Below are positions 2,174 to 35,077 of a stretch of 64,000 nt of DNA, one piece after another. The stretch lies in the sequence record OR062945.1, one strand, 5' to 3'. The stretch comes from Escherichia phage 308Ecol101PP. A model generated the notes under the pieces. The model had not been told where the DNA came from, did no database searches, and saw nothing but the letters and a program-made list of their open reading frames with translations. The position numbers and the translations under genes are program-made. Numbering within the stretch: the first letter of the stretch is position 1; the number at the start of each line of letters is the position of its first letter.

Positions 2174-2647
2174 ATGTTATTATCTGGCAAATTATACAAA
2201 GAAGAAAAACAAAAATTTTATGATGCACAGAATGGTAAGTGTCCTATTTGCCACCGTGAATTAGACCCTGATGTTCAAGGTAACCATCTTGACCACGACC
2301 ACGAATTAAACGGGCCAAAAGCAGGTAGAGTTCGTGGGTTACTCTGTAATCTGTGCAACGCAGCAGAAGGCCAAATGAAGCATAAGTTCAACCGTTCCGG
2401 TCTTAAAGGACGTGATGTCGACTACCTCGAATGGCTTGAAGCTCTTCTTGCTTATTTGAAACAAGATTATTCTGATAATAATATCCATCCTAATTTTGTT
2501 CCAGACAAAACTAAAGAGTTCTCAAGACTAGGTAAAGAGGAAATGATGGCTGAGATGCTTCAAAGAGGATTTGAATATAATGAATCTGATACCAAAACAC
2601 AATTAATAGCTTCATTCAAAAAGCAGCTTAGAAAGAGTTTAAAATGA
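2174..2647 (+). CDS. 49: endonuclease VII (Holliday junction resolvase)
   Basis: 157 aa, N-terminal CPIC...C...C zinc site and HLDHDHELNG motif; matches T4 gp49 from memory. Confidence 0.9.
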   Translation: MLLSGKLYKEEKQKFYDAQNGKCPICHRELDPDVQGNHLDHDHELNGPKAGRVRGLLCNLCNAAEGQMKHKFNRSGLKGRDVDYLEWLEALLAYLKQDYSDNNIHPNFVPDKTKEFSRLGKEEMMAEMLQRGFEYNESDTKTQLIASFKKQLRKSLK

Positions 2648-4461
2648 AAATTGAAAAAGAAATTGAAGGATTAATTCATAAAACTAATAAAGATCTTTTG
2701 AACGAGAATGCTAATAAAGATTCTCGTGTTTTTCCAACTCAACGGGACCTTATGGCTGGTATTGTGTCTAAGCACATTGCCAAAAATATGGTCCCGTCTT
2801 TTATTATGAAAGCACATGAAAGCGGAATTATCCATTTCCATGATATTGATTATTCCCCTGCTCTTCCATTTACTAATTGCTGTTTAGTAGATTTAAAAGG
2901 AATGCTTGAAAACGGGTTTAAGCTAGGTAATGCTCAAATTGAAACGCCTAAATCGATTGGTGTTGCTACTGCAATTATGGCACAAATTACCGCACAGGTT
3001 GCTTCACATCAGTACGGCGGAACGACTTTTGCTAATGTAGATAAAGTACTTTCTCCTTATGTTAAACGCACCTATGCAAAACATATTGAGGATGCAGAAA
3101 AATGGCAAATCGCTGATGCGTTGAATTATGCCCAATCTAAAACAGAAAAAGACGTATACGATGCATTTCAAGCTTATGAGTATGAAGTAAATACTCTTTT
3201 TAGCTCAAACGGTCAAACGCCTTTTGTAACAATTACATTTGGTACTGGAACTGACTGGACTGAACGAATTATTCAGAAAGCAATTCTTAAAAACCGCATT
3301 AAAGGCCTTGGTCGTGATGGAATAACTCCTATTTTCCCTAAACTTGTTATGTTCATTGAAGAGGGTGTCAATCTTTATAAAGACGACCCGAACTATGATA
3401 TTAAGCAGCTTGCTCTAGAGTGTGCAAGCAAAAGAATGTATCCTGATATTATTTCAGTTAAGAACAATAAAGCTATCACTGGTTCATCTATTCCTGTTTC
3501 TCCAATGGGTTGTCGTAGTTTCTTGAGTGTATGGAAAGATTCGACTGGAAATGAAATTCTTGATGGACGTAATAATCTTGGTGTTGTAACACTGAATCTT
3601 CCTCGTATTGCGTTAGATTCTTATATTGGAACACAATTCAATGAACAGAAATTTGTTGAGCTATTTAATGAACGAATGGATCTGTGTTTTGAAGCCTTGA
3701 TGTGTAGAATTAGTTCTTTAAAGGGTGTTAAAGCAACTGTTGCTCCTATTCTTTACCAAGAAGGTGCATTCGGGGTTCGTCTTAAACCTGATGACGATAT
3801 AATTGAGTTATTTAAAAACGGTAGAAGTTCAGTGTCCTTAGGATACATTGGTATTCACGAATTGAATATTCTTGTCGGTCGTGATATTGGACAAGAAATT
3901 TTAACTAAAATGAATGCTCGTCTTAAGCAGTGGACTGAAAGAACCGGTTTTGCTTTTAGCTTGTATTCTACTCCTGCTGAAAACCTGTGCTATCGCTTCT
4001 GTAAACTTGATACCGAGAAATATGGAAGTGTAAAAGATGTTACTGATAAAGGCTGGTACACTAATAGTTTCCATGTTTCAGTAGAAGAAAATATCACTCC
4101 GTTTGAAAAGATTTCTCGCGAAGCCCCATATCATTTCATTGCGACTGGCGGACATATTTCTTATGTTGAACTTCCTGATATGAAAAATAACCTAAAAGGT
4201 CTTGAGGCTGTATGGGATTATGCTGCACAACATTTAGATTATTTTGGTGTTAATATGCCAGTAGATAAATGTTTTACATGTGGAAGTACTCATGAAATGA
4301 CTCCTACTGAAACCGGATTTGTTTGTTCTATTTGTGGAGAAACTGACCCTAAAAAGATGAACACCATAAGAAGAACATGCGGTTATCTTGGAAATCCTAA
4401 CGAACGCGGATTTAATCTCGGCAAAAATAAAGAAATCATGCATAGGGTTAAACACCAATGA
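2644..4461 (+). CDS. nrdD: anaerobic ribonucleoside-triphosphate reductase
   Basis: 605 aa, C-terminal glycyl-radical region and CxxC zinc site (CFTCGS...CSICGE); uninterrupted ORF. Confidence 0.9.
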   Translation: MKIEKEIEGLIHKTNKDLLNENANKDSRVFPTQRDLMAGIVSKHIAKNMVPSFIMKAHESGIIHFHDIDYSPALPFTNCCLVDLKGMLENGFKLGNAQIETPKSIGVATAIMAQITAQVASHQYGGTTFANVDKVLSPYVKRTYAKHIEDAEKWQIADALNYAQSKTEKDVYDAFQAYEYEVNTLFSSNGQTPFVTITFGTGTDWTERIIQKAILKNRIKGLGRDGITPIFPKLVMFIEEGVNLYKDDPNYDIKQLALECASKRMYPDIISVKNNKAITGSSIPVSPMGCRSFLSVWKDSTGNEILDGRNNLGVVTLNLPRIALDSYIGTQFNEQKFVELFNERMDLCFEALMCRISSLKGVKATVAPILYQEGAFGVRLKPDDDIIELFKNGRSSVSLGYIGIHELNILVGRDIGQEILTKMNARLKQWTERTGFAFSLYSTPAENLCYRFCKLDTEKYGSVKDVTDKGWYTNSFHVSVEENITPFEKISREAPYHFIATGGHISYVELPDMKNNLKGLEAVWDYAAQHLDYFGVNMPVDKCFTCGSTHEMTPTETGFVCSICGETDPKKMNTIRRTCGYLGNPNERGFNLGKNKEIMHRVKHQ

Positions 4462-16548: not shown

Positions 16549-19260
16549 ATGAAAGAATTTTACTTAACGGTTGAACAGATTGGTGATTCAATTTTTGAAC
16601 GTTACATCGATTCTAACGGCCGTGAACGTACTCGTGAAGTAGAATATAAACCATCACTGTTTGCTCATTGTCCAGAAAGTCAGGCTACGAAATATTTCGA
16701 TATCTACGGTAAGCCGTGTACTCGTAAGTTGTTCGCCAATATGCGTGATGCCTCCCAATGGATTAAACGCATGGAAGATATCGGACTTGAAGCACTTGGC
16801 ATGGATGATTTCAAATTGGCGTATTTGTCTGACACTTATAACTATGAAATCAAATACGACCATACAAAAATTCGTGTGGCTAACTTCGACATCGAAGTAA
16901 CATCTCCGGACGGGTTCCCTGAGCCGTCACAAGCAAAACATCCGATTGATGCTATCACTCATTATGACTCAATTGATGACAGGTTTTATGTATTTGACCT
17001 TTTGAATTCTCCATATGGTAATGTAGAAGAATGGTCTATTGAAATCGCTGCTAAGCTTCAAGAACAAGGCGGTGATGAAGTTCCATCTGAAATTATCGAT
17101 AAAATCATTTATATGCCGTTCGATAACGAAAAAGAATTGTTGATGGAATATCTCAACTTCTGGCAACAGAAAACTCCTGTCATTTTGACTGGATGGAACG
17201 TTGAGTCATTTGATATTCCATATGTGTATAACCGAATCAAGAATATTTTTGGCGAATCTACTGCGAAACGTTTATCACCACATCGTAAAACTCGTGTTAA
17301 AGTTATCGAAAACATGTATGGTTCTCGTGAAATCATTACATTGTTCGGTATCTCTGTTCTTGATTACATTGACCTTTACAAAAAATTCTCTTTTACCAAT
17401 CAACCATCATATTCTCTGGATTACATTTCAGAATTTGAATTGAACGTTGGTAAACTGAAATATGACGGCCCTATTTCTAAGCTTCGTGAAAGCAATCACC
17501 AACGATATATTTCTTATAACATTATCGACGTGTATCGTGTATTGCAAATTGATGCTAAACGTCAGTTCATCAACTTGAGTTTGGACATGGGTTATTATGC
17601 TAAGATACAGATTCAATCTGTGTTTAGCCCAATTAAAACATGGGATGCTATTATTTTTAATAGCCTTAAAGAGCAGAACAAGGTGATTCCACAAGGTCGT
17701 TCTCACCCGGTTCAACCTTATCCCGGCGCTTTTGTTAAGGAACCTATTCCAAATCGATACAAATATGTAATGAGTTTCGACCTTACATCTCTGTATCCAA
17801 GTATTATTCGCCAAGTGAATATTAGCCCAGAAACAATAGCAGGAACGTTTAAAGTAGCTCCACTACATGATTATATTAACGCAATCGCTGAACGTCCTTC
17901 TGATGTGTACAGTTGTTCTCCTAACGGCATGATGTATTATAAAGACCGTGACGGTGTTGTTCCAACTGAAATCACTAAAGTCTTTAATCAACGTAAAGAA
18001 CATAAAGGTTACATGCTTGCAGCTCAACGTAATGGCGAAATAATTAAAGAGGCATTGCATAATCCTAATCTTTCTGTTGACGAACCATTAGATGTTGATT
18101 ATCGTTTCGACTTCAGTGATGAGATTAAAGAAAAGATTAAAAAGTTGTCTGCTAAATCTCTTAATGAAATGTTGTTTAGAGCTCAACGTACTGAAGTTGC
18201 AGGTATGACTGCCCAAATTAACCGTAAATTGCTTATCAACTCACTTTATGGTGCACTTGGCAACGTTTGGTTCCGTTATTATGATTTGCGTAATGCTACT
18301 GCAATCACAACATTCGGGCAAATGGCTTTACAGTGGATTGAACGTAAAGTTAATGAATATCTGAATGAAGTTTGTGGCACAGAAGGTGAAGCTTTCGTTC
18401 TTTATGGTGATACAGACTCTATTTACGTATCTGCTGATAAAATTATCGATAAGGTTGGTGAATCTAAATTCCGTGATACCAACCATTGGGTAGACTTCTT
18501 AGATAAGTTTGCACGTGAACGTATGGAACCAGCTATTGATAGAGGTTTCCGTGAAATGTGTGAATACATGAACAATAAACAACACTTAATGTTCATGGAC
18601 CGAGAAGCTATCGCTGGGCCTCCACTCGGTTCTAAAGGTATTGGTGGATTCTGGACTGGTAAGAAACGTTATGCATTAAACGTGTGGGATATGGAAGGAA
18701 CCAGATACGCTGAGCCTAAACTCAAAATCATGGGTCTAGAGACTCAGAAATCTTCGACTCCTAAAGCAGTACAGAAAGCTCTTAAAGAATGTATTCGTCG
18801 TATGCTTCAAGAAGGTGAAGAATCATTACAAGAATATTTTAAAGAGTTTGAAAAAGAATTCCGTCAATTGAATTATATTAGCATCGCGTCGGTATCTTCT
18901 GCGAATAACATTGCTAAATATGATGTAGGTGGATTCCCTGGTCCTAAATGCCCGTTCCATATTCGTGGAATTCTGACGTATAACCGGGCTATCAAAGGTA
19001 ATATCGATGCACCGCAAGTTGTAGAAGGTGAAAAAGTATATGTTCTGCCTTTACGTGAAGGAAACCCATTCGGTGATAAATGTATCGCATGGCCTTCTGG
19101 TACTGAAATCACAGATTTAATTAAAGACGATGTACTTCATTGGATGGACTACACTGTTCTCCTTGAGAAGACATTTATTAAACCACTTGAAGGATTCACA
19201 TCAGCAGCGAAACTCGATTACGAGAAGAAAGCATCTCTGTTCGATATGTTCGATTTTTGA
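16549..19260 (+). CDS. 43: DNA polymerase gp43 (family B, with 3'-5' exonuclease)
   Basis: 903 aa; exonuclease motif FDIEV, polymerase motifs DLTSLYPSI, KLLINSLYG and YGDTDS; N-terminus matches my memory of RB69 gp43. Confidence 0.95.
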   Translation: MKEFYLTVEQIGDSIFERYIDSNGRERTREVEYKPSLFAHCPESQATKYFDIYGKPCTRKLFANMRDASQWIKRMEDIGLEALGMDDFKLAYLSDTYNYEIKYDHTKIRVANFDIEVTSPDGFPEPSQAKHPIDAITHYDSIDDRFYVFDLLNSPYGNVEEWSIEIAAKLQEQGGDEVPSEIIDKIIYMPFDNEKELLMEYLNFWQQKTPVILTGWNVESFDIPYVYNRIKNIFGESTAKRLSPHRKTRVKVIENMYGSREIITLFGISVLDYIDLYKKFSFTNQPSYSLDYISEFELNVGKLKYDGPISKLRESNHQRYISYNIIDVYRVLQIDAKRQFINLSLDMGYYAKIQIQSVFSPIKTWDAIIFNSLKEQNKVIPQGRSHPVQPYPGAFVKEPIPNRYKYVMSFDLTSLYPSIIRQVNISPETIAGTFKVAPLHDYINAIAERPSDVYSCSPNGMMYYKDRDGVVPTEITKVFNQRKEHKGYMLAAQRNGEIIKEALHNPNLSVDEPLDVDYRFDFSDEIKEKIKKLSAKSLNEMLFRAQRTEVAGMTAQINRKLLINSLYGALGNVWFRYYDLRNATAITTFGQMALQWIERKVNEYLNEVCGTEGEAFVLYGDTDSIYVSADKIIDKVGESKFRDTNHWVDFLDKFARERMEPAIDRGFREMCEYMNNKQHLMFMDREAIAGPPLGSKGIGGFWTGKKRYALNVWDMEGTRYAEPKLKIMGLETQKSSTPKAVQKALKECIRRMLQEGEESLQEYFKEFEKEFRQLNYISIASVSSANNIAKYDVGGFPGPKCPFHIRGILTYNRAIKGNIDAPQVVEGEKVYVLPLREGNPFGDKCIAWPSGTEITDLIKDDVLHWMDYTVLLEKTFIKPLEGFTSAAKLDYEKKASLFDMFDF

Positions 19261-19300: not shown

Positions 19301-19936
19301 ATGAAAACTACTCCTATTACTATCGCTATTGACGCAATCATAAAACAAGCTTCTTCTTTGGCCGCTATGGCCAAAGTAATTAGTCAAAACCCTGCTCGTT
19401 ATAATGCTATTCTAGAAACTCTTCGACGCCCAGGACTTAGTAATTATGAAAGCCGAGTAATTATTACAGGTGTTGGTAAGAATGCTAATATTGCAACTAA
19501 AGCTTCTGAGACATTTGCTTCACTTGGTATCCCGAGTATGTACTTGAACACTGGGCATTATTCTCACGGTGATGCAGGATTCATTGCGCCTAATGATGTG
19601 TTGATTCATATTAGTCGTTCTGGTAAAACTGAAGAAATGATAGGCGTGGCTAAGCATCTTAAAATGATTCGTCCGAACGTCAAACAGATTCTGTTGCATT
19701 GTAACCCGGACATTCCACAAGAATACGAAGCTCTTTTTGATTATACGTTCTGTACAGGCATCGCAGTAGAGGTTGATGAGAATTCTCTGGCTCCGACCAT
19801 GTCCACTACATTGTTGTTAGCGCTTATCGATACGTTTGCTATCAACCTTTCGTCTGAACGTGGATTTACCTCTAATGACTTCCTTAAGTTCCACCCTGGT
19901 GGTGCACTAGGTGCCATGTTACGAGGCGAACAATGA
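19301..19936 (+). CDS. SIS-domain sugar-phosphate isomerase (KdsD/GutQ-like or GmhA-like, no CBS domains)
   Basis: 211 aa; SIS-like pattern GVGKNANIA...SRSGKTEE and C-terminal HPGGALG, characteristic of arabinose-5-phosphate isomerase SIS domains. Confidence 0.7.
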   Translation: MKTTPITIAIDAIIKQASSLAAMAKVISQNPARYNAILETLRRPGLSNYESRVIITGVGKNANIATKASETFASLGIPSMYLNTGHYSHGDAGFIAPNDVLIHISRSGKTEEMIGVAKHLKMIRPNVKQILLHCNPDIPQEYEALFDYTFCTGIAVEVDENSLAPTMSTTLLLALIDTFAINLSSERGFTSNDFLKFHPGGALGAMLRGEQ

Positions 19937-20076
19937 AAGCAATAACAATAGGACTTTTACTATTGATGCTTGTCATGACTATCTACTGGAGCTTAACGGC
20001 TCCAGTAATGATTCCGACTCTTATAATCGGATGGATTATGATTGGACTACAAGCAAAGTATGAATGCTTTAACTAG
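19933..20076 (+). CDS. hypothetical small membrane protein (47 aa, not in ORF track)
   Basis: Hand-translated ATG 19933 (ATGA overlap) to TAG 20074-20076; almost entirely hydrophobic. Confidence 0.35.
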   Translation: MKAITIGLLLLMLVMTIYWSLTAPVMIPTLIIGWIMIGLQAKYECFN

Positions 20077-20117
20077 AATAGTGTACAATACTCCTACTTA
20101 CCAATGAGGACCACAAC

Positions 20118-21803
20118 ATGAAAAAAGCTGTTATTCTTGGTGCTGGACTGGCAACTCGTTTGTATCCAATAACGCATCATATTCCTAAGGTGCTTGTTAA
20201 CTATAAACAAGACACTATTCTGAGCAATTTGTATACAATTTATTCTGACCTTGGCGCAGATGAAATTATTGTAGTAGTTCATTCAAAATTTGCTGAAACT
20301 GTTCGAGCTTATTGTGAGCAAGAAGGGTTCAATGTGACTATTCGTACAGTTGATGAAGCGTATGGTTCTGCTTATGCTCTTGCTAAATTGCACAAAGATT
20401 TAGACGGCCATAATGTAATTGTTAACTGGTGTGATATTATTCCTGATTTTGGTTCGTGGTCTTGGAATGTTAACGCAATCTATGTTAAGGGTGACGAATG
20501 TCGATATAATTTCGACGGTGAAAATATCACTAATGTAGGTTCAACAGGTGGTAATGTTGTAGGAATTTATCAGTTCAAAGACTGGGAATTCTATATGGGT
20601 TCTACTGATGAGGAAATTCATGAATACTGCAAAGGACGTGATTTCGTAGAATTCCTTTACGGCAGCGCATTCAATAAATCAGAGCTTATGAATCTAATTG
20701 ATTTAGGTGATATGCCTAAACTTGAAAAAGCTCATGAAGTTCGTGAACTTAATCGTAGTTTTAATGCAGTTGAAATTGGTGAAGAAACTGTAACTAAATT
20801 CGCATTAACCGAACAGGGCCGAGCTCTTCAGAAAGATGAGATTTCATGGTATCTTAAAGTGAAATCAGATTCAGTTCCTCAGTTAGTTTCTGTTAATGAA
20901 AATAACTTTGAAATGGAACGCATTAAAGGTAAGCCGGCATTTGAATATATTAAATCCAAATCAAGTCTTGCTCGTCCACAAATTGTTGATGCAATTTTAG
21001 ATGCACTGAAATTCAGCACAGACACTTATTTTGTAAGTCCTGAAACTGTTCGTCGTGATTTCACTAAAGAATTCTATACTAAAGTTATTGATCGTTGTGA
21101 AAGTATTCAACCATTGATTGATTCATTTGGTAAAATCACACATGTGAACTACACTAAGATTGGGCGTCTGAAGCCAATGTTGAAACAAGCTTTAGAACAC
21201 CTTATTCGTTATCATAACCGTTCTCAGGGACAGTACTCTGTTATTCATGGTGACCCGAACTTCAGTAATACTATGATTACTGATAATGGTGAAGTCAAGT
21301 TTATCGACCCTCGTGGATATTTTGGTGAAACCAAGATTTATGGGCCAAAATTGTATGATGAAGCTAAAGTGCTTTACGCTGTTTCAGGTTATGATGAATT
21401 CAACGCTAATCCGACTTGGGGACAGTTTACTATTGATGAAACAACTTGTAATGTGACTATTAACATCAATCCGTTAGTTTACAAATATGGAAAGATGAGT
21501 TCGTTTAACGAGTATCATCATTTGGCAGTGGCAATTATCTGGATTGCATTAGGTGGTTATTTCAAGAATAATCCACTTAAAGCGGTAGCCGCATATTATA
21601 AAGGTATGGAACTTCTGACTAAGCAATTACGTAATATGGGCCGTGTACTTCAGGACGGCACTATTAGTTATGATGTAGCAGAACCTGTAACGGCTACTCT
21701 GATTACAAAAAATCCTGGTAAATGGGTACTAACTGATAAAGAAACTGGTGTTTCTTATCGTCCAATCGGTGGCGATATCACTCATCAATGGGAACGAATC
21801 TAA
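20118..21803 (+). CDS. bifunctional sugar-1-phosphate nucleotidyltransferase / kinase-fold protein
   Basis: N-terminus ILGAGLATRLYPIT resembles the G-x-G-T-R motif of sugar nucleotidyltransferases; C-terminal HGDPNFSNTMI...KFIDPRG resembles the catalytic loop of APH/choline-kinase-fold kinases. Confidence 0.7.
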   Translation: MKKAVILGAGLATRLYPITHHIPKVLVNYKQDTILSNLYTIYSDLGADEIIVVVHSKFAETVRAYCEQEGFNVTIRTVDEAYGSAYALAKLHKDLDGHNVIVNWCDIIPDFGSWSWNVNAIYVKGDECRYNFDGENITNVGSTGGNVVGIYQFKDWEFYMGSTDEEIHEYCKGRDFVEFLYGSAFNKSELMNLIDLGDMPKLEKAHEVRELNRSFNAVEIGEETVTKFALTEQGRALQKDEISWYLKVKSDSVPQLVSVNENNFEMERIKGKPAFEYIKSKSSLARPQIVDAILDALKFSTDTYFVSPETVRRDFTKEFYTKVIDRCESIQPLIDSFGKITHVNYTKIGRLKPMLKQALEHLIRYHNRSQGQYSVIHGDPNFSNTMITDNGEVKFIDPRGYFGETKIYGPKLYDEAKVLYAVSGYDEFNANPTWGQFTIDETTCNVTININPLVYKYGKMSSFNEYHHLAVAIIWIALGGYFKNNPLKAVAAYYKGMELLTKQLRNMGRVLQDGTISYDVAEPVTATLITKNPGKWVLTDKETGVSYRPIGGDITHQWERI

Positions 21804-22189
21804 TGCACCGTGTAAAAAACATGCTTAATCTTTGTTTTGATGTCGATGATTGTATAACAGAGTGGAATAACAATCGTGATTACGTGAACTTCAAACCAGA
21901 CGTCGAAATGGTGTCTGCCATTAATGCCCTGTATGATGCAGGGCATACCATAACGCTTTACACTGCTCGCGGTATGAAGTCAGTAGGTCCTGGTCGTATA
22001 GCAATTGACATTCTCCCAAGTCTGATTCAGAACTTGGCAAACATTGGATTGAAGTACCATAATTTGCTAACACATAAACCAGTATATGATTGGATTATCG
22101 ACGACAAAGCTATGCGTCCTGACGAATTCAAAGCTCTTATGAATAAAGGCGAATTCGAAACATTTAAATCATATAAACCGAATCTATAA
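21803..22189 (+). CDS. HAD-superfamily phosphatase
   Basis: 128 aa with HAD motif I (FDVDDCIT); TAATG overlap with upstream gene; track start 21788. Confidence 0.6.
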   Translation: MHRVKNMLNLCFDVDDCITEWNNNRDYVNFKPDVEMVSAINALYDAGHTITLYTARGMKSVGPGRIAIDILPSLIQNLANIGLKYHNLLTHKPVYDWIIDDKAMRPDEFKALMNKGEFETFKSYKPNL

Positions 22190-30953: not shown

Positions 30954-31247
30954 ATGAAAAAGTTATCATTGGCAGCAATCTTACTCGCAGTATCATGTGC
31001 ACCAGCTCCAGTTACGGCAGGTTATGATAAAGACCTCTGTGAGTGGTCAATGACTGCAAATCAAGAAGATGTTGAACAACAAATCTTCTCTGATATCATG
31101 AACATCACTAAACGAGACCGTCCTAATATGGTTAATAAAGTTGTTGAACAACTTAAGTCCGGTGGTATCATGCAGTACAATTATGTTTTGTATTGTGACC
31201 CTAATTTCGATAACAAAGATATCGTAACCGAAATCACAGGTGAATAA
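30954..31247 (+). CDS. sp: Spackle-like periplasmic protein (superinfection exclusion)
   Basis: 97 aa with signal peptide MKKLSLAAILLAVSCAPAP; T4 Sp is also 97 aa and encoded near dmd and 61. Confidence 0.6.
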   Translation: MKKLSLAAILLAVSCAPAPVTAGYDKDLCEWSMTANQEDVEQQIFSDIMNITKRDRPNMVNKVVEQLKSGGIMQYNYVLYCDPNFDNKDIVTEITGE

Positions 31248-31248
31248 T

Positions 31249-31899
31249 ATGATTTATTACATGCACAAAAACGCGCCATTTAAATATGGTAAATTTCCTA
31301 ATGCACAATGTTATAATATAACGCCGAATGAAAATAATAACGGTTATCATATTGGTGTAATTTTTGTAATTGTTAAAGATAACGAAATCGTTGCCTGGGC
31401 TGATTTTAAAGGTACAACGTATGATGTTAATCCGGTGCCTTTCACATATTACAATATAATGGATTTGGCATATGATTATAATTGGTTTAATCATGACGCG
31501 TTGGCTCATATTGAAGGTGTAGGATTTGACATCTCTTATTCTAGCTATTCATTATGTCCTATGAGCCGAGCTCACGGTAAAGATGCATCATATCTTTCAT
31601 TTCGGAAACGTGTAAACTTCAAACGTAGTACAGAGTATGTCGGTGGACTCTTTGTTAAAGATAATAAAATAACCCGTATTAGTTATCCTTTAAGTGTAGG
31701 TCAAAAAGATGTTGATGTTGATTTAGACTTAACTGAAAATAACATTAATCATATTGCTTCTGTATATTTTGATATCGATGAAAAAATTGTAGTGTGTGGA
31801 TACGAATTACCACCTGAAGAAAAGGCTGAAGCAATTGAAGTCGAATTAGAAATTTCTGTTGATGACCAAATATTTAATGCATTTATGAATCGAGGTTAA
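31249..31899 (+). CDS. hypothetical protein
   Basis: 216 aa; noticeably AT-rich codon usage. Confidence 0.45.
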   Translation: MIYYMHKNAPFKYGKFPNAQCYNITPNENNNGYHIGVIFVIVKDNEIVAWADFKGTTYDVNPVPFTYYNIMDLAYDYNWFNHDALAHIEGVGFDISYSSYSLCPMSRAHGKDASYLSFRKRVNFKRSTEYVGGLFVKDNKITRISYPLSVGQKDVDVDLDLTENNINHIASVYFDIDEKIVVCGYELPPEEKAEAIEVELEISVDDQIFNAFMNRG

Positions 31900-32585: not shown

Positions 32586-32624
32586 TATGATGGCCTTATT
32601 AATTTAAGGCCTCTGGAGAATACT

Positions 32625-33647
32625 ATGGCTGAATGGATAGATAATGAATTTGCTTATCGTGCGTTTTCTCACCTACCTCGTTTTAGACAAATCAATAATT
32701 CAAGCACATTTAAATTAACATTTCGTTGTCCAGTTTGTGGCGACTCCCAGACAGATGCAATGAAAGCTCGTGGATGGTATTATGGCGGTACTCCTGGTAA
32801 TGTACATTGCTATAATTGTCAATACCACAATACAATTTCCGGATACTTAAAAGAATATGACGAAGAGCTTTATCGCGAATATCTAATGGAAGTTCGTAAA
32901 GAAAAAGCTAGAATGGAACCAAAGATTGAAAAGGTTCCTGAAGCTAAGCCGGAGCCAGAGAAAAAGACTATAAATTCTTTACCGTCTTGTTCTCGTCTGG
33001 ACAAGCTGCCTGAAGAGCATCCTATTGTGAAATATGTTAAGTCTCGATGCATTCCTAAAGAATCATGGAACAGATTATGGTTCACATTAGAATGGCCTAA
33101 ATTGGTCAACAAGATTCAACCTGGTACGTATAAGAAAGAGATTCCCGAACCACGTTTAGTGATTCCTATTTTTAATAAAGATGGGAAGGCCGAGTCATTC
33201 CAAGGGCGTGCACTTCGTAAAGATGCTCCTCAGAAATATATCACTATTAAAGCGTTTGAGTCTGCAACAAAAATTTATGGTGTTGAACGTGTTAAGGAAG
33301 GAGACGTCTGGGTAATGGAAGGCCCTATTGATAGTTTATTCATACCCAATGCAATCGCTATTACAGGCGGCTCAATAGATTTAGATGTGGTACCATTTAA
33401 AGAACGTCGGGTATGGGTAATGGATAATGAACCTAGGCATCCGGATACTATAGCTCGCATGAAGCGATTAGTTGATGCAGGCGAACGTGTCATGTTCTGG
33501 GACCGAGCTCCATGGAGATCAAAGGATGTGAATGATATGGTAATGAAAGAAAATGCAACACCACAAGAAATTTTAGAATATATGAAACAGAATATTTCAA
33601 GTGGGTTGCATGCTAAAATGAGATTATCTCGTTATTCGAAGATTTAA
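32625..33647 (+). CDS. 61: DNA primase gp61
   Basis: 340 aa, N-terminal zinc ribbon CPVCGDS...CYNC, TOPRIM core; matches T4 gp61 from memory. Confidence 0.9.
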   Translation: MAEWIDNEFAYRAFSHLPRFRQINNSSTFKLTFRCPVCGDSQTDAMKARGWYYGGTPGNVHCYNCQYHNTISGYLKEYDEELYREYLMEVRKEKARMEPKIEKVPEAKPEPEKKTINSLPSCSRLDKLPEEHPIVKYVKSRCIPKESWNRLWFTLEWPKLVNKIQPGTYKKEIPEPRLVIPIFNKDGKAESFQGRALRKDAPQKYITIKAFESATKIYGVERVKEGDVWVMEGPIDSLFIPNAIAITGGSIDLDVVPFKERRVWVMDNEPRHPDTIARMKRLVDAGERVMFWDRAPWRSKDVNDMVMKENATPQEILEYMKQNISSGLHAKMRLSRYSKI

Positions 33648-33841
33648 ACAAGCCCTATAATAGCAAAGGCCAAATCAACTACAGTATCCAATGGAACAGA
33701 AGGAACTATAATACCATTAGCAACTAACAATGGTGCAATCCCGAAGTTCCATGAAATAATGCCACCTACAACTATTGCGGCGATAGCAGTTTTCTTTTTA
33801 TTGCCTTTAATAGCGTTTATTAACGATGGAAGTTTAAACAT
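33644..33841 (-). CDS. hypothetical small membrane protein encoded antisense to the surrounding early genes
   Basis: 65 aa, hydrophobic; AGGAGATATT Shine-Dalgarno on the minus strand; near-consensus late-promoter-like AATAAATAA upstream. Confidence 0.4.
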   Translation of the reverse strand: MFKLPSLINAIKGNKKKTAIAAIVVGGIISWNFGIAPLLVANGIIVPSVPLDTVVDLAFAIIGLV

Positions 33842-33929
33842 AATATCTCCTTAGTTACCTATTATTTATTACGCTTTATAAAATTAATGTTAGAATTAAC
33901 TCTCTTATACTGAATTGAAAGGAAAAATA

Positions 33930-34451
33930 ATGGCACACTTTAACGAATGTTCACAACTTATTTCTGGTGTTGATAAAGCAGAAGAAGCTTATTTTAATGC
34001 TCTGATTCACGAAGATAAAGACCCACTTCAGGTAATGCTTGATATGCAGAAATCTTTACAGGTTCGTTTGGCAAATGACAAGCCTGAACATAACAAACAT
34101 CCTGATGAATTGGCCACTGCAGGCGACGTTGTTGATTGGCTGCGTAATCAGAAAGATTATATTGATGATGAATTCCGTGAACTGCTGACTTCACTTGGTG
34201 GTATGAGCAATGGTGAAAAAGCCGCCAGCAGTGTATGGAAGCCGTGGAAAGCACAACATGCTGAATATCGTAATCGTCGTATCGATGAACTGTCTCCTGA
34301 AGACCAGCTTGAAATTAAATTTGAGATGATTGATATTCTGCACTTCGTTCTGAACATGTTCCAAGGTCTGGGTCTTTCTGCTGAAGAAATCTTTAAACTG
34401 TATTATCTGAAGAATGCTGAAAACTTTGCTCGTCAAGACCGAGGTTATTAA
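33930..34451 (+). CDS. 56: dCTP/dUTP pyrophosphatase gp56 (MazG-like)
   Basis: 173 aa starting MAHFNE with acidic MazG-type helices; track start 33915 is TTG. Confidence 0.75.
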   Translation: MAHFNECSQLISGVDKAEEAYFNALIHEDKDPLQVMLDMQKSLQVRLANDKPEHNKHPDELATAGDVVDWLRNQKDYIDDEFRELLTSLGGMSNGEKAASSVWKPWKAQHAEYRNRRIDELSPEDQLEIKFEMIDILHFVLNMFQGLGLSAEEIFKLYYLKNAENFARQDRGY

Positions 34452-34624
34452 TGGCTCGTTTAAATAAACGTCAGCTTAAGAAAGCTCATAAGAAACGTAT
34501 TGACCAACTATTTAAAAATGATAACAGTGAGCTTATTTGTAAGCTCCTGTCTAATCAGCTTCAGCATGTTAGTCAATTATCAGACCATCTACATATGGTT
34601 GATTGGGTTGCAAATGAAACTTGA
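34451..34624 (+). CDS. hypothetical small basic protein (57 aa, not in ORF track)
   Basis: Hand-translated; N-terminus MARLNKRQLKKAHKKR resembles the RPTKRQ tail motif. Confidence 0.3.
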   Translation: MARLNKRQLKKAHKKRIDQLFKNDNSELICKLLSNQLQHVSQLSDHLHMVDWVANET

Positions 34625-34838
34625 TTTTTATGCATGGCAAAAAGCCGGGAGACCGGCTAATAAAGCATTCGGCTCTGATGGATATAATACTAGACTCCAC
34701 TGGAAATTTAATACTCCAGATGATTATTCTCCGGTAATAATTAACGGTGATGTTGTTATATTAGCTAAATTCGGATATTTTATTGTCCCGAAGAAATTCA
34801 TTATAAATACACCTGTAATTAAACAACAAAGGAGTTAA
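34614..34838 (+). CDS. hypothetical protein
   Basis: Internal ATG of track ORF 34500..34838. Confidence 0.3.
   Translation: MKLDFYAWQKAGRPANKAFGSDGYNTRLHWKFNTPDDYSPVIINGDVVILAKFGYFIVPKKFIINTPVIKQQRS
34802..34809 (+). promoter_or_regulatory. T4-type late promoter (TATAAATA) upstream of soc
   Basis: Exact TATAAATA about 31 nt upstream of the soc ATG. Confidence 0.55.
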
Positions 34839-34840
34839 TT

Positions 34841-35077
34841 ATGGGTGGTTATGTAAACATCAAAACCTTTACGCATCCTGCTGGTGAAGGTAAAGAAGTT
34901 AAAGGTATGGAAGTTTCTGTGCCGTTTGAGATTTATTCAAACGAACATCGGATTGCAGATTCTCATTACCAAATCTTTCCATCAGAAAAGGCAGCTTATT
35001 CTACTGTAGTTTCTGATGCAGCTGACTGGAAAACTAAGAACGCTGCAATGTTTACCCCTACACCAGTAAGTGGTTAA
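34841..35077 (+). CDS. soc: small outer capsid protein Soc
   Basis: 78 aa with GYVNIKTF...YQIFPSEKAAYSTV, matching T4 Soc from memory; has its own late promoter. Confidence 0.7.
   Translation: MGGYVNIKTFTHPAGEGKEVKGMEVSVPFEIYSNEHRIADSHYQIFPSEKAAYSTVVSDAADWKTKNAAMFTPTPVSG

Follow-up and report, generated by a model that had tools for sequence, protein, structure and literature searches.

Late transcription in phage T4 starts from promoters that consist of an 8-bp box and have no -35 element (PMC2988020). Among 50 listed T4 late promoters, 32 are perfect and nine carry an A at position -13, which is the commonest variant; the early and middle transcripts of T4 have a single polarity, whereas late transcripts may have either (PMC2988020). 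In RB69 and its relatives, the late promoter has A or T at -13 (PMC1524935). Here we describe how one locus of Escherichia phage 308Ecol101PP compares with these systems. The sequence analysed, hereafter the window, is a stretch of 64,000 nucleotides (nt) from record OR062945.1, and the element in question is an open reading frame (ORF) of 65 amino acids (aa) on the minus strand between gene 61, which encodes DNA primase, and gene 56, which encodes dCTPase. This ORF is a bona fide gene for a protein, orthologous to RB69ORF029w and belonging to PHROG 2024; as such it is ordinary and already catalogued.

We consider it quite probable that the locus as a whole is best explained as a genuine PHROG 2024 gene that is transcribed late and whose bitopic inner-membrane product would act as a membrane modulator. 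Since the gene is a catalogued hypothetical one, little of this is new. What goes beyond the databases, and only slightly, is an unannotated homolog in T4 and the overlap of late and middle promoters at this site.

Identity and conservation of the minus-strand gene

When positions 32600-34500 were used as a megablast query, 709 phage records were matched, headed by Mosigvirus (RB69-like) coliphages, including moha, Shf125875 and JS09, at 97-98% identity over the full length. The window comes from an RB69-like (Mosigvirus) T-even coliphage. A first-pass annotation of the window had proposed a 65-aa minus-strand ORF at this site, and the ORF is present with its ATG at exactly those coordinates (Table 1). 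Its translation is MFKLPSLINAIKGNKKKTAIAAIVVGGIISWNFGIAPLLVANGIIVPSVPLDTVVDLAFAIIGLV, and an identical protein is on file (NCBI AHV82735.1, UniProt A0A060BDL0). The RB69 ortholog, RB69ORF029w (NP_861719.1), is 97% identical and agrees in position, in strand and in its 4-nt overlap with gene 61. RB69ORF029w and its orthologs do not differ in substance from the window ORF, which is this gene as carried by a sister Mosigvirus. In Shf125875, moha and phage 55 the gene is annotated as a hypothetical or 'putative transmembrane' protein. Residues 1-65 of the ORF match phrog_2024 over profile positions 1-65 (E=1.4e-26), and the family (PHROG 2024, pVOG VOG1982) is labelled 'hypothetical protein', function unknown. 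The names soc.2 and 'virion structural protein' also appeared among the megablast labels; both are names of the ORF that follows gene 56, and this identity was rejected.

The gene is widely distributed. A tblastn search matched 692 phage records, with the frame intact in the 685 that are matched at 80% coverage or more, and T4 is represented at approximately 52% identity. A profile search of 5.8 billion proteins returned 75 members, all of 60-67 aa except for fragments, and an exhaustive hidden Markov model search of 1.84 billion cluster representatives added further distant members of 60-68 aa. By profile searches the family extends to relatives of 60-69 aa in Gelderland-, Moon-, Jiaoda- and Kanagawavirus at an identical position, and the distant members, together with a paralog described below, also match PHROG 2024 (E between 3e-13 and 5e-31). 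A locus search of IMG/VR with the single protein found only two near-identical loci. In total, PHROG 2024 members are carried by metagenomic contigs and by seven named genera of Tevenvirinae, namely Mosigvirus, Tequatrovirus (T4), Gaprivervirus (CJ20, VR26), Gelderlandvirus (STP4-a), Moonvirus (CF1), Jiaodavirus (JD18) and Kanagawavirus (KLB31). Searches in other collections gave nothing beyond the family: the window protein has no match in Pfam, where relatives gave only sub-threshold noise, and none in NCBIfam, where a match of one distant member to AaeX (E=0.013) is likewise noise. PADLOC holds no related family, and the PDB yielded no relative by sequence profile (best E=0.9) or by Foldseek (best E=8.5).

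Synteny is preserved in every case examined, comprising the window, RB69, T4, CJ20, ESCO47, VR26, STP4-a, CF1, JD18, KLB31 and five metagenomic contigs. In each, the gene lies on the strand opposite to its neighbours, on the gene 56 side of the primase gene and convergent with the 3′ end of gene 61. The overlap of the ORF with the primase stop, noted in the first-pass annotation, is the 4-nt sequence TTAA, and the same overlap is found in T4, RB69, STP4-a, CF1, KLB31 and lineage L019. In the remaining lineages, the stop codons of the ORF and gene 61 are separated by gaps of 8-19 nt.

That the ORF encodes a protein is strongly supported by purifying selection and by its conservation across genera. 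In Nei-Gojobori comparisons over 12 orthologs, the ratio of non-synonymous to synonymous substitution rates (dN/dS, or omega) is approximately 0.05-0.15. The window and RB69 differ by nine synonymous and two non-synonymous changes (omega 0.065), and the window and L008 by 12 and three, respectively (omega 0.07). More distant comparisons agree, with omega 0.10 for ESCO47 (dS 1.30, dN 0.13) and 0.058 for L011, and ortholog differences are distributed by codon position as 1351:495:2035. Because the overlap with another gene amounts to only 4 nt, this signal can be assigned to the 65-aa frame itself. An ORF that arose by chance in AT-rich DNA, or an untranslated and decaying remnant, could account for the short length, for the lack of Pfam, NCBIfam and PDB matches and for the missing annotation in the T4 and T2 RefSeq records. 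Such an origin is scarcely credible given a dN/dS near 0.1, a frame that 685 of the 692 records keep intact at that coverage, and motifs and a Shine-Dalgarno (SD) sequence that are kept across genera in which the DNA between genes has otherwise been scrambled. The chance reading was rejected on the selection evidence, that is, on dN/dS and the codon-position differences.

A late-type promoter box and a conserved Shine-Dalgarno sequence

At the SD and start codon the minus strand reads TAAGGAGATATTATG, with AGGAG (33851..33847) located 5 nt from the ATG. The SD is a good one, as the first-pass annotation held, and AGGAG or GGAGG occurs at the identical offset from the ATG in all 13 lineages examined, in which the intergenic DNA is otherwise barely alignable. 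The minus strand upstream of the ORF is GTAATAAATAATAGGTAACTAAGGAGATATTATG. Here the box AATAAATA, which begins 29 nt before the ATG, agrees with the consensus TATAAATA at seven of eight positions.

The resemblance of this box to the late promoter consensus had also been remarked on, and it is strengthened by conservation in relatives and by depletion of the motif in the window. The sequence NATAAATA ([ACG]ATAAATA) lies 20-30 nt before the ATG in 10 of the 13 lineages, and the other three have ATTAAATA (two lineages) or TATTAATA (one lineage) at the box position. WATAAATA is found seven times in the 64-kb window, compared with 16.8 ± 3.8 times in 100 dinucleotide shuffles. No shuffle fell below seven, and therefore the motif is avoided in the window outside gene starts and is not background noise. 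Five of the seven sites directly precede an SD and ATG. Perfect copies of TATAAATA number four (2138+, 34802+, 58512- and 62797-), each right before an SD and ATG, and their targets are the gene 49 ORF, soc and, for the last two, minus-strand ORFs at the tail-fibre end. AATAAATA occurs three times, and only the copy listed in Table 1 is followed by an SD and ATG.

The ORF also stands alone in its orientation. In moha, the ortholog moha_156 is the sole minus-strand feature among 91 features spanning 50 kb. The next credible minus-strand genes in the window begin at approximately 57.8 kb and are large ORFs of 183-1005 aa, which we take to be tail-fibre genes. A scan of the early block of the window for a second minus-strand combination of late-box variant, SD, ATG and ORF found none. 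The moha annotation, the window ORFs and the late-box scan agree with the earlier description of a lone minus-strand gene in about 57 kb. As its polarity is opposite to that of all early and middle transcripts, late expression would be expected. From the conserved late-type box, the SD and this polarity rule, we infer with good support that the ORF is transcribed late. Transcription by gp55-RNA polymerase from the box would start near 33857, giving a predicted leader of approximately 16 nt that includes the strong AAGGAG. No sigma-70 promoter was found on either strand between 32900 and 34100, and a search of Rfam with 33000-34500 gave one far-sub-threshold microRNA match, rejected as chance.

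The T4 gene soc offers a comparison within the same early block. It is a small late gene, as the window ORF is predicted to be, served like it by a late box and SD and only a few hundred bases away, with its box at 34802 and soc at 34841 in window coordinates. However, soc has a perfect consensus box, shares the polarity of the early genes and encodes a soluble capsid decoration protein, whereas the window ORF has the opposite polarity, a box with A at -13 and a predicted membrane product.

Table 1. Features of the locus in window coordinates; positions that follow an L number are those of the relative concerned.
Feature	Position	Strand	Basis
Small membrane-protein coding sequence, 65 aa, ATG start	33644..33841	-	ORF list, phrog_2024, RB69 annotation, dN/dS
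Shine-Dalgarno AAGGAG, 5 nt 5′ of ATG	33847..33852	-	sequence; same offset in relatives
Late-promoter-type box AATAAATA, A at -13	33863-33870	-	sequence, motif scan
TTAA, 4-nt overlap of convergent stops (gene 61 / 65-aa ORF)	33644-33647	both	sequence, ORF list
Gene 61, DNA primase	32625..33647	+	phrog_47 E=9e-102; annotation in relatives
Gene 56, dCTPase	33930..34451	+	phrog_173 E=1e-45; annotation in relatives
Putative MotA-type middle promoter of gene 56: tacGCTTTA (33870-33878), 12-nt spacer, TAGAAT (33891-33896)	33870..33896	+	sequence; inferred
PHROG 2024 paralog in relatives	L010 1305..1508; L011 2805..3008; L015 3207..3407; L006 ~2700

A late-type box next to a putative gene 56 middle promoter

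On the plus strand upstream of gene 56, there is an element that fits the MotA middle-promoter consensus as quoted in PMC1524935, with its GCTT at 33873-76. The homologous site in T4, VR26 and L017 has TGCTT(A/C)A together with TATAAT. In the window, the late box and the putative MotA-type promoter stand back to back on opposite strands (33863-33896). The late box and the MotA-type element share 2 nt in VR26, CJ20, ESCO47 and L011, such that AAGCA, the reverse complement of TGCTT, provides the first two bases of CATAAATA. This sharing of bases would explain why position -13 is not T in these four. The T4 RefSeq record notes that the gene 56 transcript primes the replication origin oriA; any functional interplay between the late and middle promoters is speculation.

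This arrangement raises the alternative that the selected function is a late antisense transcript, which would run head-on into gene 61 and the early genes upstream of it, or that the overlap of its promoter with the gene 56 middle promoter would shut the latter off late, the peptide being secondary. Nothing else is encoded on the opposite strand in about 57 kb, the ORF points at the primase stop in every lineage examined, and its late box adjoins or overlaps the MotA box of a promoter that in T4, according to the RefSeq note, makes the oriA primer. Moreover, no intrinsic terminator was found on either strand between 32900 and 34100, and folding of the transcript at the 3′ end of the ORF revealed no structure (z=0.29). 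With neither a terminator nor a stable structure after the ORF, read-through to produce antisense primase RNA is likely. Such read-through is probably not obligatory, given that a hairpin lies between the convergent genes in some lineages. In L017, the gap between the stops (4205..4235) holds the GC-rich hairpin AGGGGGTTACACCCCT, which could be a bidirectional terminator; the local fold in the window has no equivalent. A role exerted purely at the RNA level needs neither the strong purifying selection on amino acids, with invariant residues across genera, nor an SD perfectly placed in 13 of 13 lineages, nor an ORF length held at 60-69 aa. We therefore regard the antisense transcript as very doubtful as the selected function. 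Antisense transcripts that continue into gene 61 are a plausible additional effect of late transcription of a protein-coding gene, and they are unable to explain the amino-acid conservation.

An unannotated homolog in T4

T4 carries an intact 66-aa homolog with 52% identity at NC_000866.4 17738..17938(+), corresponding to L004 3239..3439. Its site is the 309-bp interval that separates dam from gene 61, where the RefSeq record has no coding sequence, and NCBI lists no accession for the exact T4 protein. The RefSeq records of T2 and HY01 likewise have no feature at this site. The T4 homolog shares with the window ORF the lysine-rich, WNF, P, HG and VD motifs, an AGGAGG SD, a GATAAATA box and the TTAA stop overlap with gene 61. 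It differs in that dam lies between the promoter region of the homolog and gene 56. The first-pass annotation had placed the window ORF where T4 carries dam. T4 dam is indeed found at this locus, but it is present in addition to the 66-aa homolog, which lies between dam and gene 61, and not instead of it. Replacement of dam by the ORF was rejected because T4 possesses both.

Neither full-text literature searches nor a T4 omics paper mentioned the window ORF or the T4 homolog, or described late or antisense transcription at dam/61. Proteomic, CRISPR interference and transcriptomic studies that are based on the T4 gene list are blind to the homolog.

Predicted topology of the product

The description of the product as a small membrane protein is upheld by hydropathy, by charge distribution and by an AlphaFold model with a 27-residue helix. 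Across the family, Kyte-Doolittle values over 19 residues range from 1.5 to 2.7. The flank that precedes the hydrophobic core contains four to six Lys/Arg residues and has a net charge of +1 to +6, and the flank that follows it has a net charge of 0 to -2. By the positive-inside rule, these flank charges predict an N-in/C-out orientation. The AlphaFold model, which was built on 14 sequences, has a mean predicted local distance difference test (pLDDT) score of 81 and places helices at residues 3-11, 15-41 and 51-62.

Fifteen positions are invariant in the 14 sequences: M1, L4, L7, A10, K12, W31, N32, F33, P37, G43, P47, V55, D56, A60 and L64. W31, N32, F33 and P37 fall within the predicted transmembrane helix, and G43, P47, V55 and D56 are located in the tail. 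These sequences and the distant members alike have a basic N-terminus, WN[FYL] within the hydrophobic core, a Pro four residues on, [HNY]G, another Pro and one or more acidic residues. The C-terminus of the window protein, ...VVDLAFAIIGLV, has no Lys or Arg and a net charge of approximately -2.

The product would thus be a 65-aa bitopic inner-membrane protein. Its lysine-rich N-terminus (KGNKKK) would be cytoplasmic, one long transmembrane helix of approximately residues 15-41 would bear the invariant W31-N32-F33...P37, and the short acidic and hydrophobic C-terminal tail (HG/NG...P...D..VD) would be periplasmic or lie at the interface.

Possible functions of the membrane protein

Bacteria possess small bitopic membrane-protein regulators, such as those of the AcrZ, MgrB and KdpF class. 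The window protein resembles them in its size (50-70 aa for the class), in its single transmembrane helix and in its conserved polar and aromatic positions, which by analogy may bind a larger membrane protein; it differs in having no homology to them. On this model we propose, with low confidence, that the protein is a small membrane-embedded modulator in which the polar Asn/Trp face of the helix would bind the protein itself, its paralog in phages that have one, or some larger membrane protein of the phage or the host. Also with low confidence, we suggest that it might act in a late step linked to the envelope, for example, lysis timing or envelope integrity.

Small size and, by prediction, a transmembrane segment and late expression are features that the protein has in common with phage holins and antiholins (T4 T and RI; classes II and III), and a holin, pinholin or antiholin-type lysis protein would permeabilize the inner membrane or regulate the T holin. 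The protein is hydrophobic and follows a late-type promoter, and helix 15-41 supplies the one or more transmembrane segments expected of a holin. In addition, the name 'Holin' is attached to a single UniProt entry, that of a T4-group homolog, and distant members have faint matches to the holin models phrog_11161 (E=0.012) and PF11351 (E=0.1). Foldseek against BFVD matched the PHROG 2024 family alone, one member of which is labelled 'Holin'. However, the profile matches are far below significance, and the UniProt label is a single automatic name set against hundreds of 'hypothetical protein' entries. There is no sequence relationship to described holins, and the window protein, lacking a Pfam or NCBIfam match, belongs to no described holin family. 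The C-terminus is hydrophobic and uncharged where holins typically have a charged, hydrophilic tail. The gene lies outside any lysis cassette, its neighbours being primase and dCTPase, and the annotation of the surrounding 50 kb contains no lysis gene. T-even phages, moreover, already possess the T holin with its RI and RIII antiholins. We find a holin-type protein unlikely and do not file the ORF as one, and its product may nonetheless have a lysis-related role.

A second functional alternative is a membrane-located superinfection-exclusion or anti-defence factor, comparable to imm, sp, dmd and the 61.2/AdfA-type neighbours. Genes of this kind abound nearby (Imm, Spackle, Dmd and a match to the AdfA family), and the role is one that small membrane proteins often fill. 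Those neighbours, however, lie on the other strand and are early genes, and factors of this type are usually needed early. No match to a PADLOC-related or other family is present, and conservation throughout genera at a fixed position is closer to that of a housekeeping accessory gene than to that of a fast-evolving arms-race gene. An exclusion or anti-defence role is, on this evidence, quite unlikely.

For the account that we prefer, a late-expressed bitopic membrane modulator, several observations count on the other side. The consensus T at -13 occurs only in lineage L013, which has the TATTAATA variant, and because this position is non-consensus in every other lineage, the promoter may be weak. 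Full-text literature searches and a T4 omics paper provided no published transcript, protein or phenotype evidence for any family member. The window protein ends in a hydrophobic stretch of 22 residues, with a Kyte-Doolittle value of 1.95 compared with 1.1-1.5 for the tails of distant members, and the protein may consequently have a two-helix hairpin topology. At least one copy of the family is dispensable, since the paralog in CJ20 is broken by a nonsense codon. Finally, the proposed function, in which we place low confidence, comes solely from general analogy with small membrane proteins.

A bolder proposal is that PHROG 2024 constitutes an overlooked late inner-membrane component with a possible role in lysis timing or the lysis-inhibition signal, that the late promoter silences the gene 56 (oriA-type) middle promoter late, or both; we hold this only tentatively, as a rather improbable but worthwhile idea. 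The locus is a compact and easily deleted test case, being a lone, probably late unit of opposite polarity in about 57 kb of early genes that abuts the putative gene 56 middle promoter and converges on primase. If a deletion were to have a lysis, envelope or promoter-switch phenotype, a component would be added to one of the best-studied phage systems.

A paralog and other features of the region

Some relatives have a second PHROG 2024 member of 66-67 aa (MGT[VL]FYQIWKL..., E=8e-20), which is found in 109 phage records, a few of which misname it, for example as 'DNA packaging ATPase'. In ESCO47 and L011 this paralog is upstream of the ortholog and overlaps it by 8 nt, whereas in VR26 it is downstream and separates the ortholog from the primase gene. 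In CJ20, the nonsense codon noted above is at codon 2. In the window, the 88 bp between the ORF and gene 56 leave no space for a paralog.

The genes imm, sp, dmd and 61.2, upstream of primase, form an exclusion/anti-defence cluster. The ORF at the gene 61.2 position of a relative has a weak Pfam match to AdfA; the regions concerned are 31240..31899 in the window and 4667..5029 in L011.

Two further features lie elsewhere in the window. A set of sugar-nucleotide genes occupies 19301..22189, right after the DNA polymerase gene (16549..19260); the corresponding moha ORFs are named arabinose-5-phosphate isomerase (SIS domain), GlmU-like bifunctional protein and 'capsule biosynthesis' protein, and T4 is not known to have such a set at that position. 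Just before the 157-aa gene 49 ORF (2174..2647), which encodes endonuclease VII, the segment 2138-2176 has a perfect TATAAATA and, after it, the hairpin CCCTTATCTAATATGGTAAGGG. This resembles the late promoter and hairpin of T4 gene 49.

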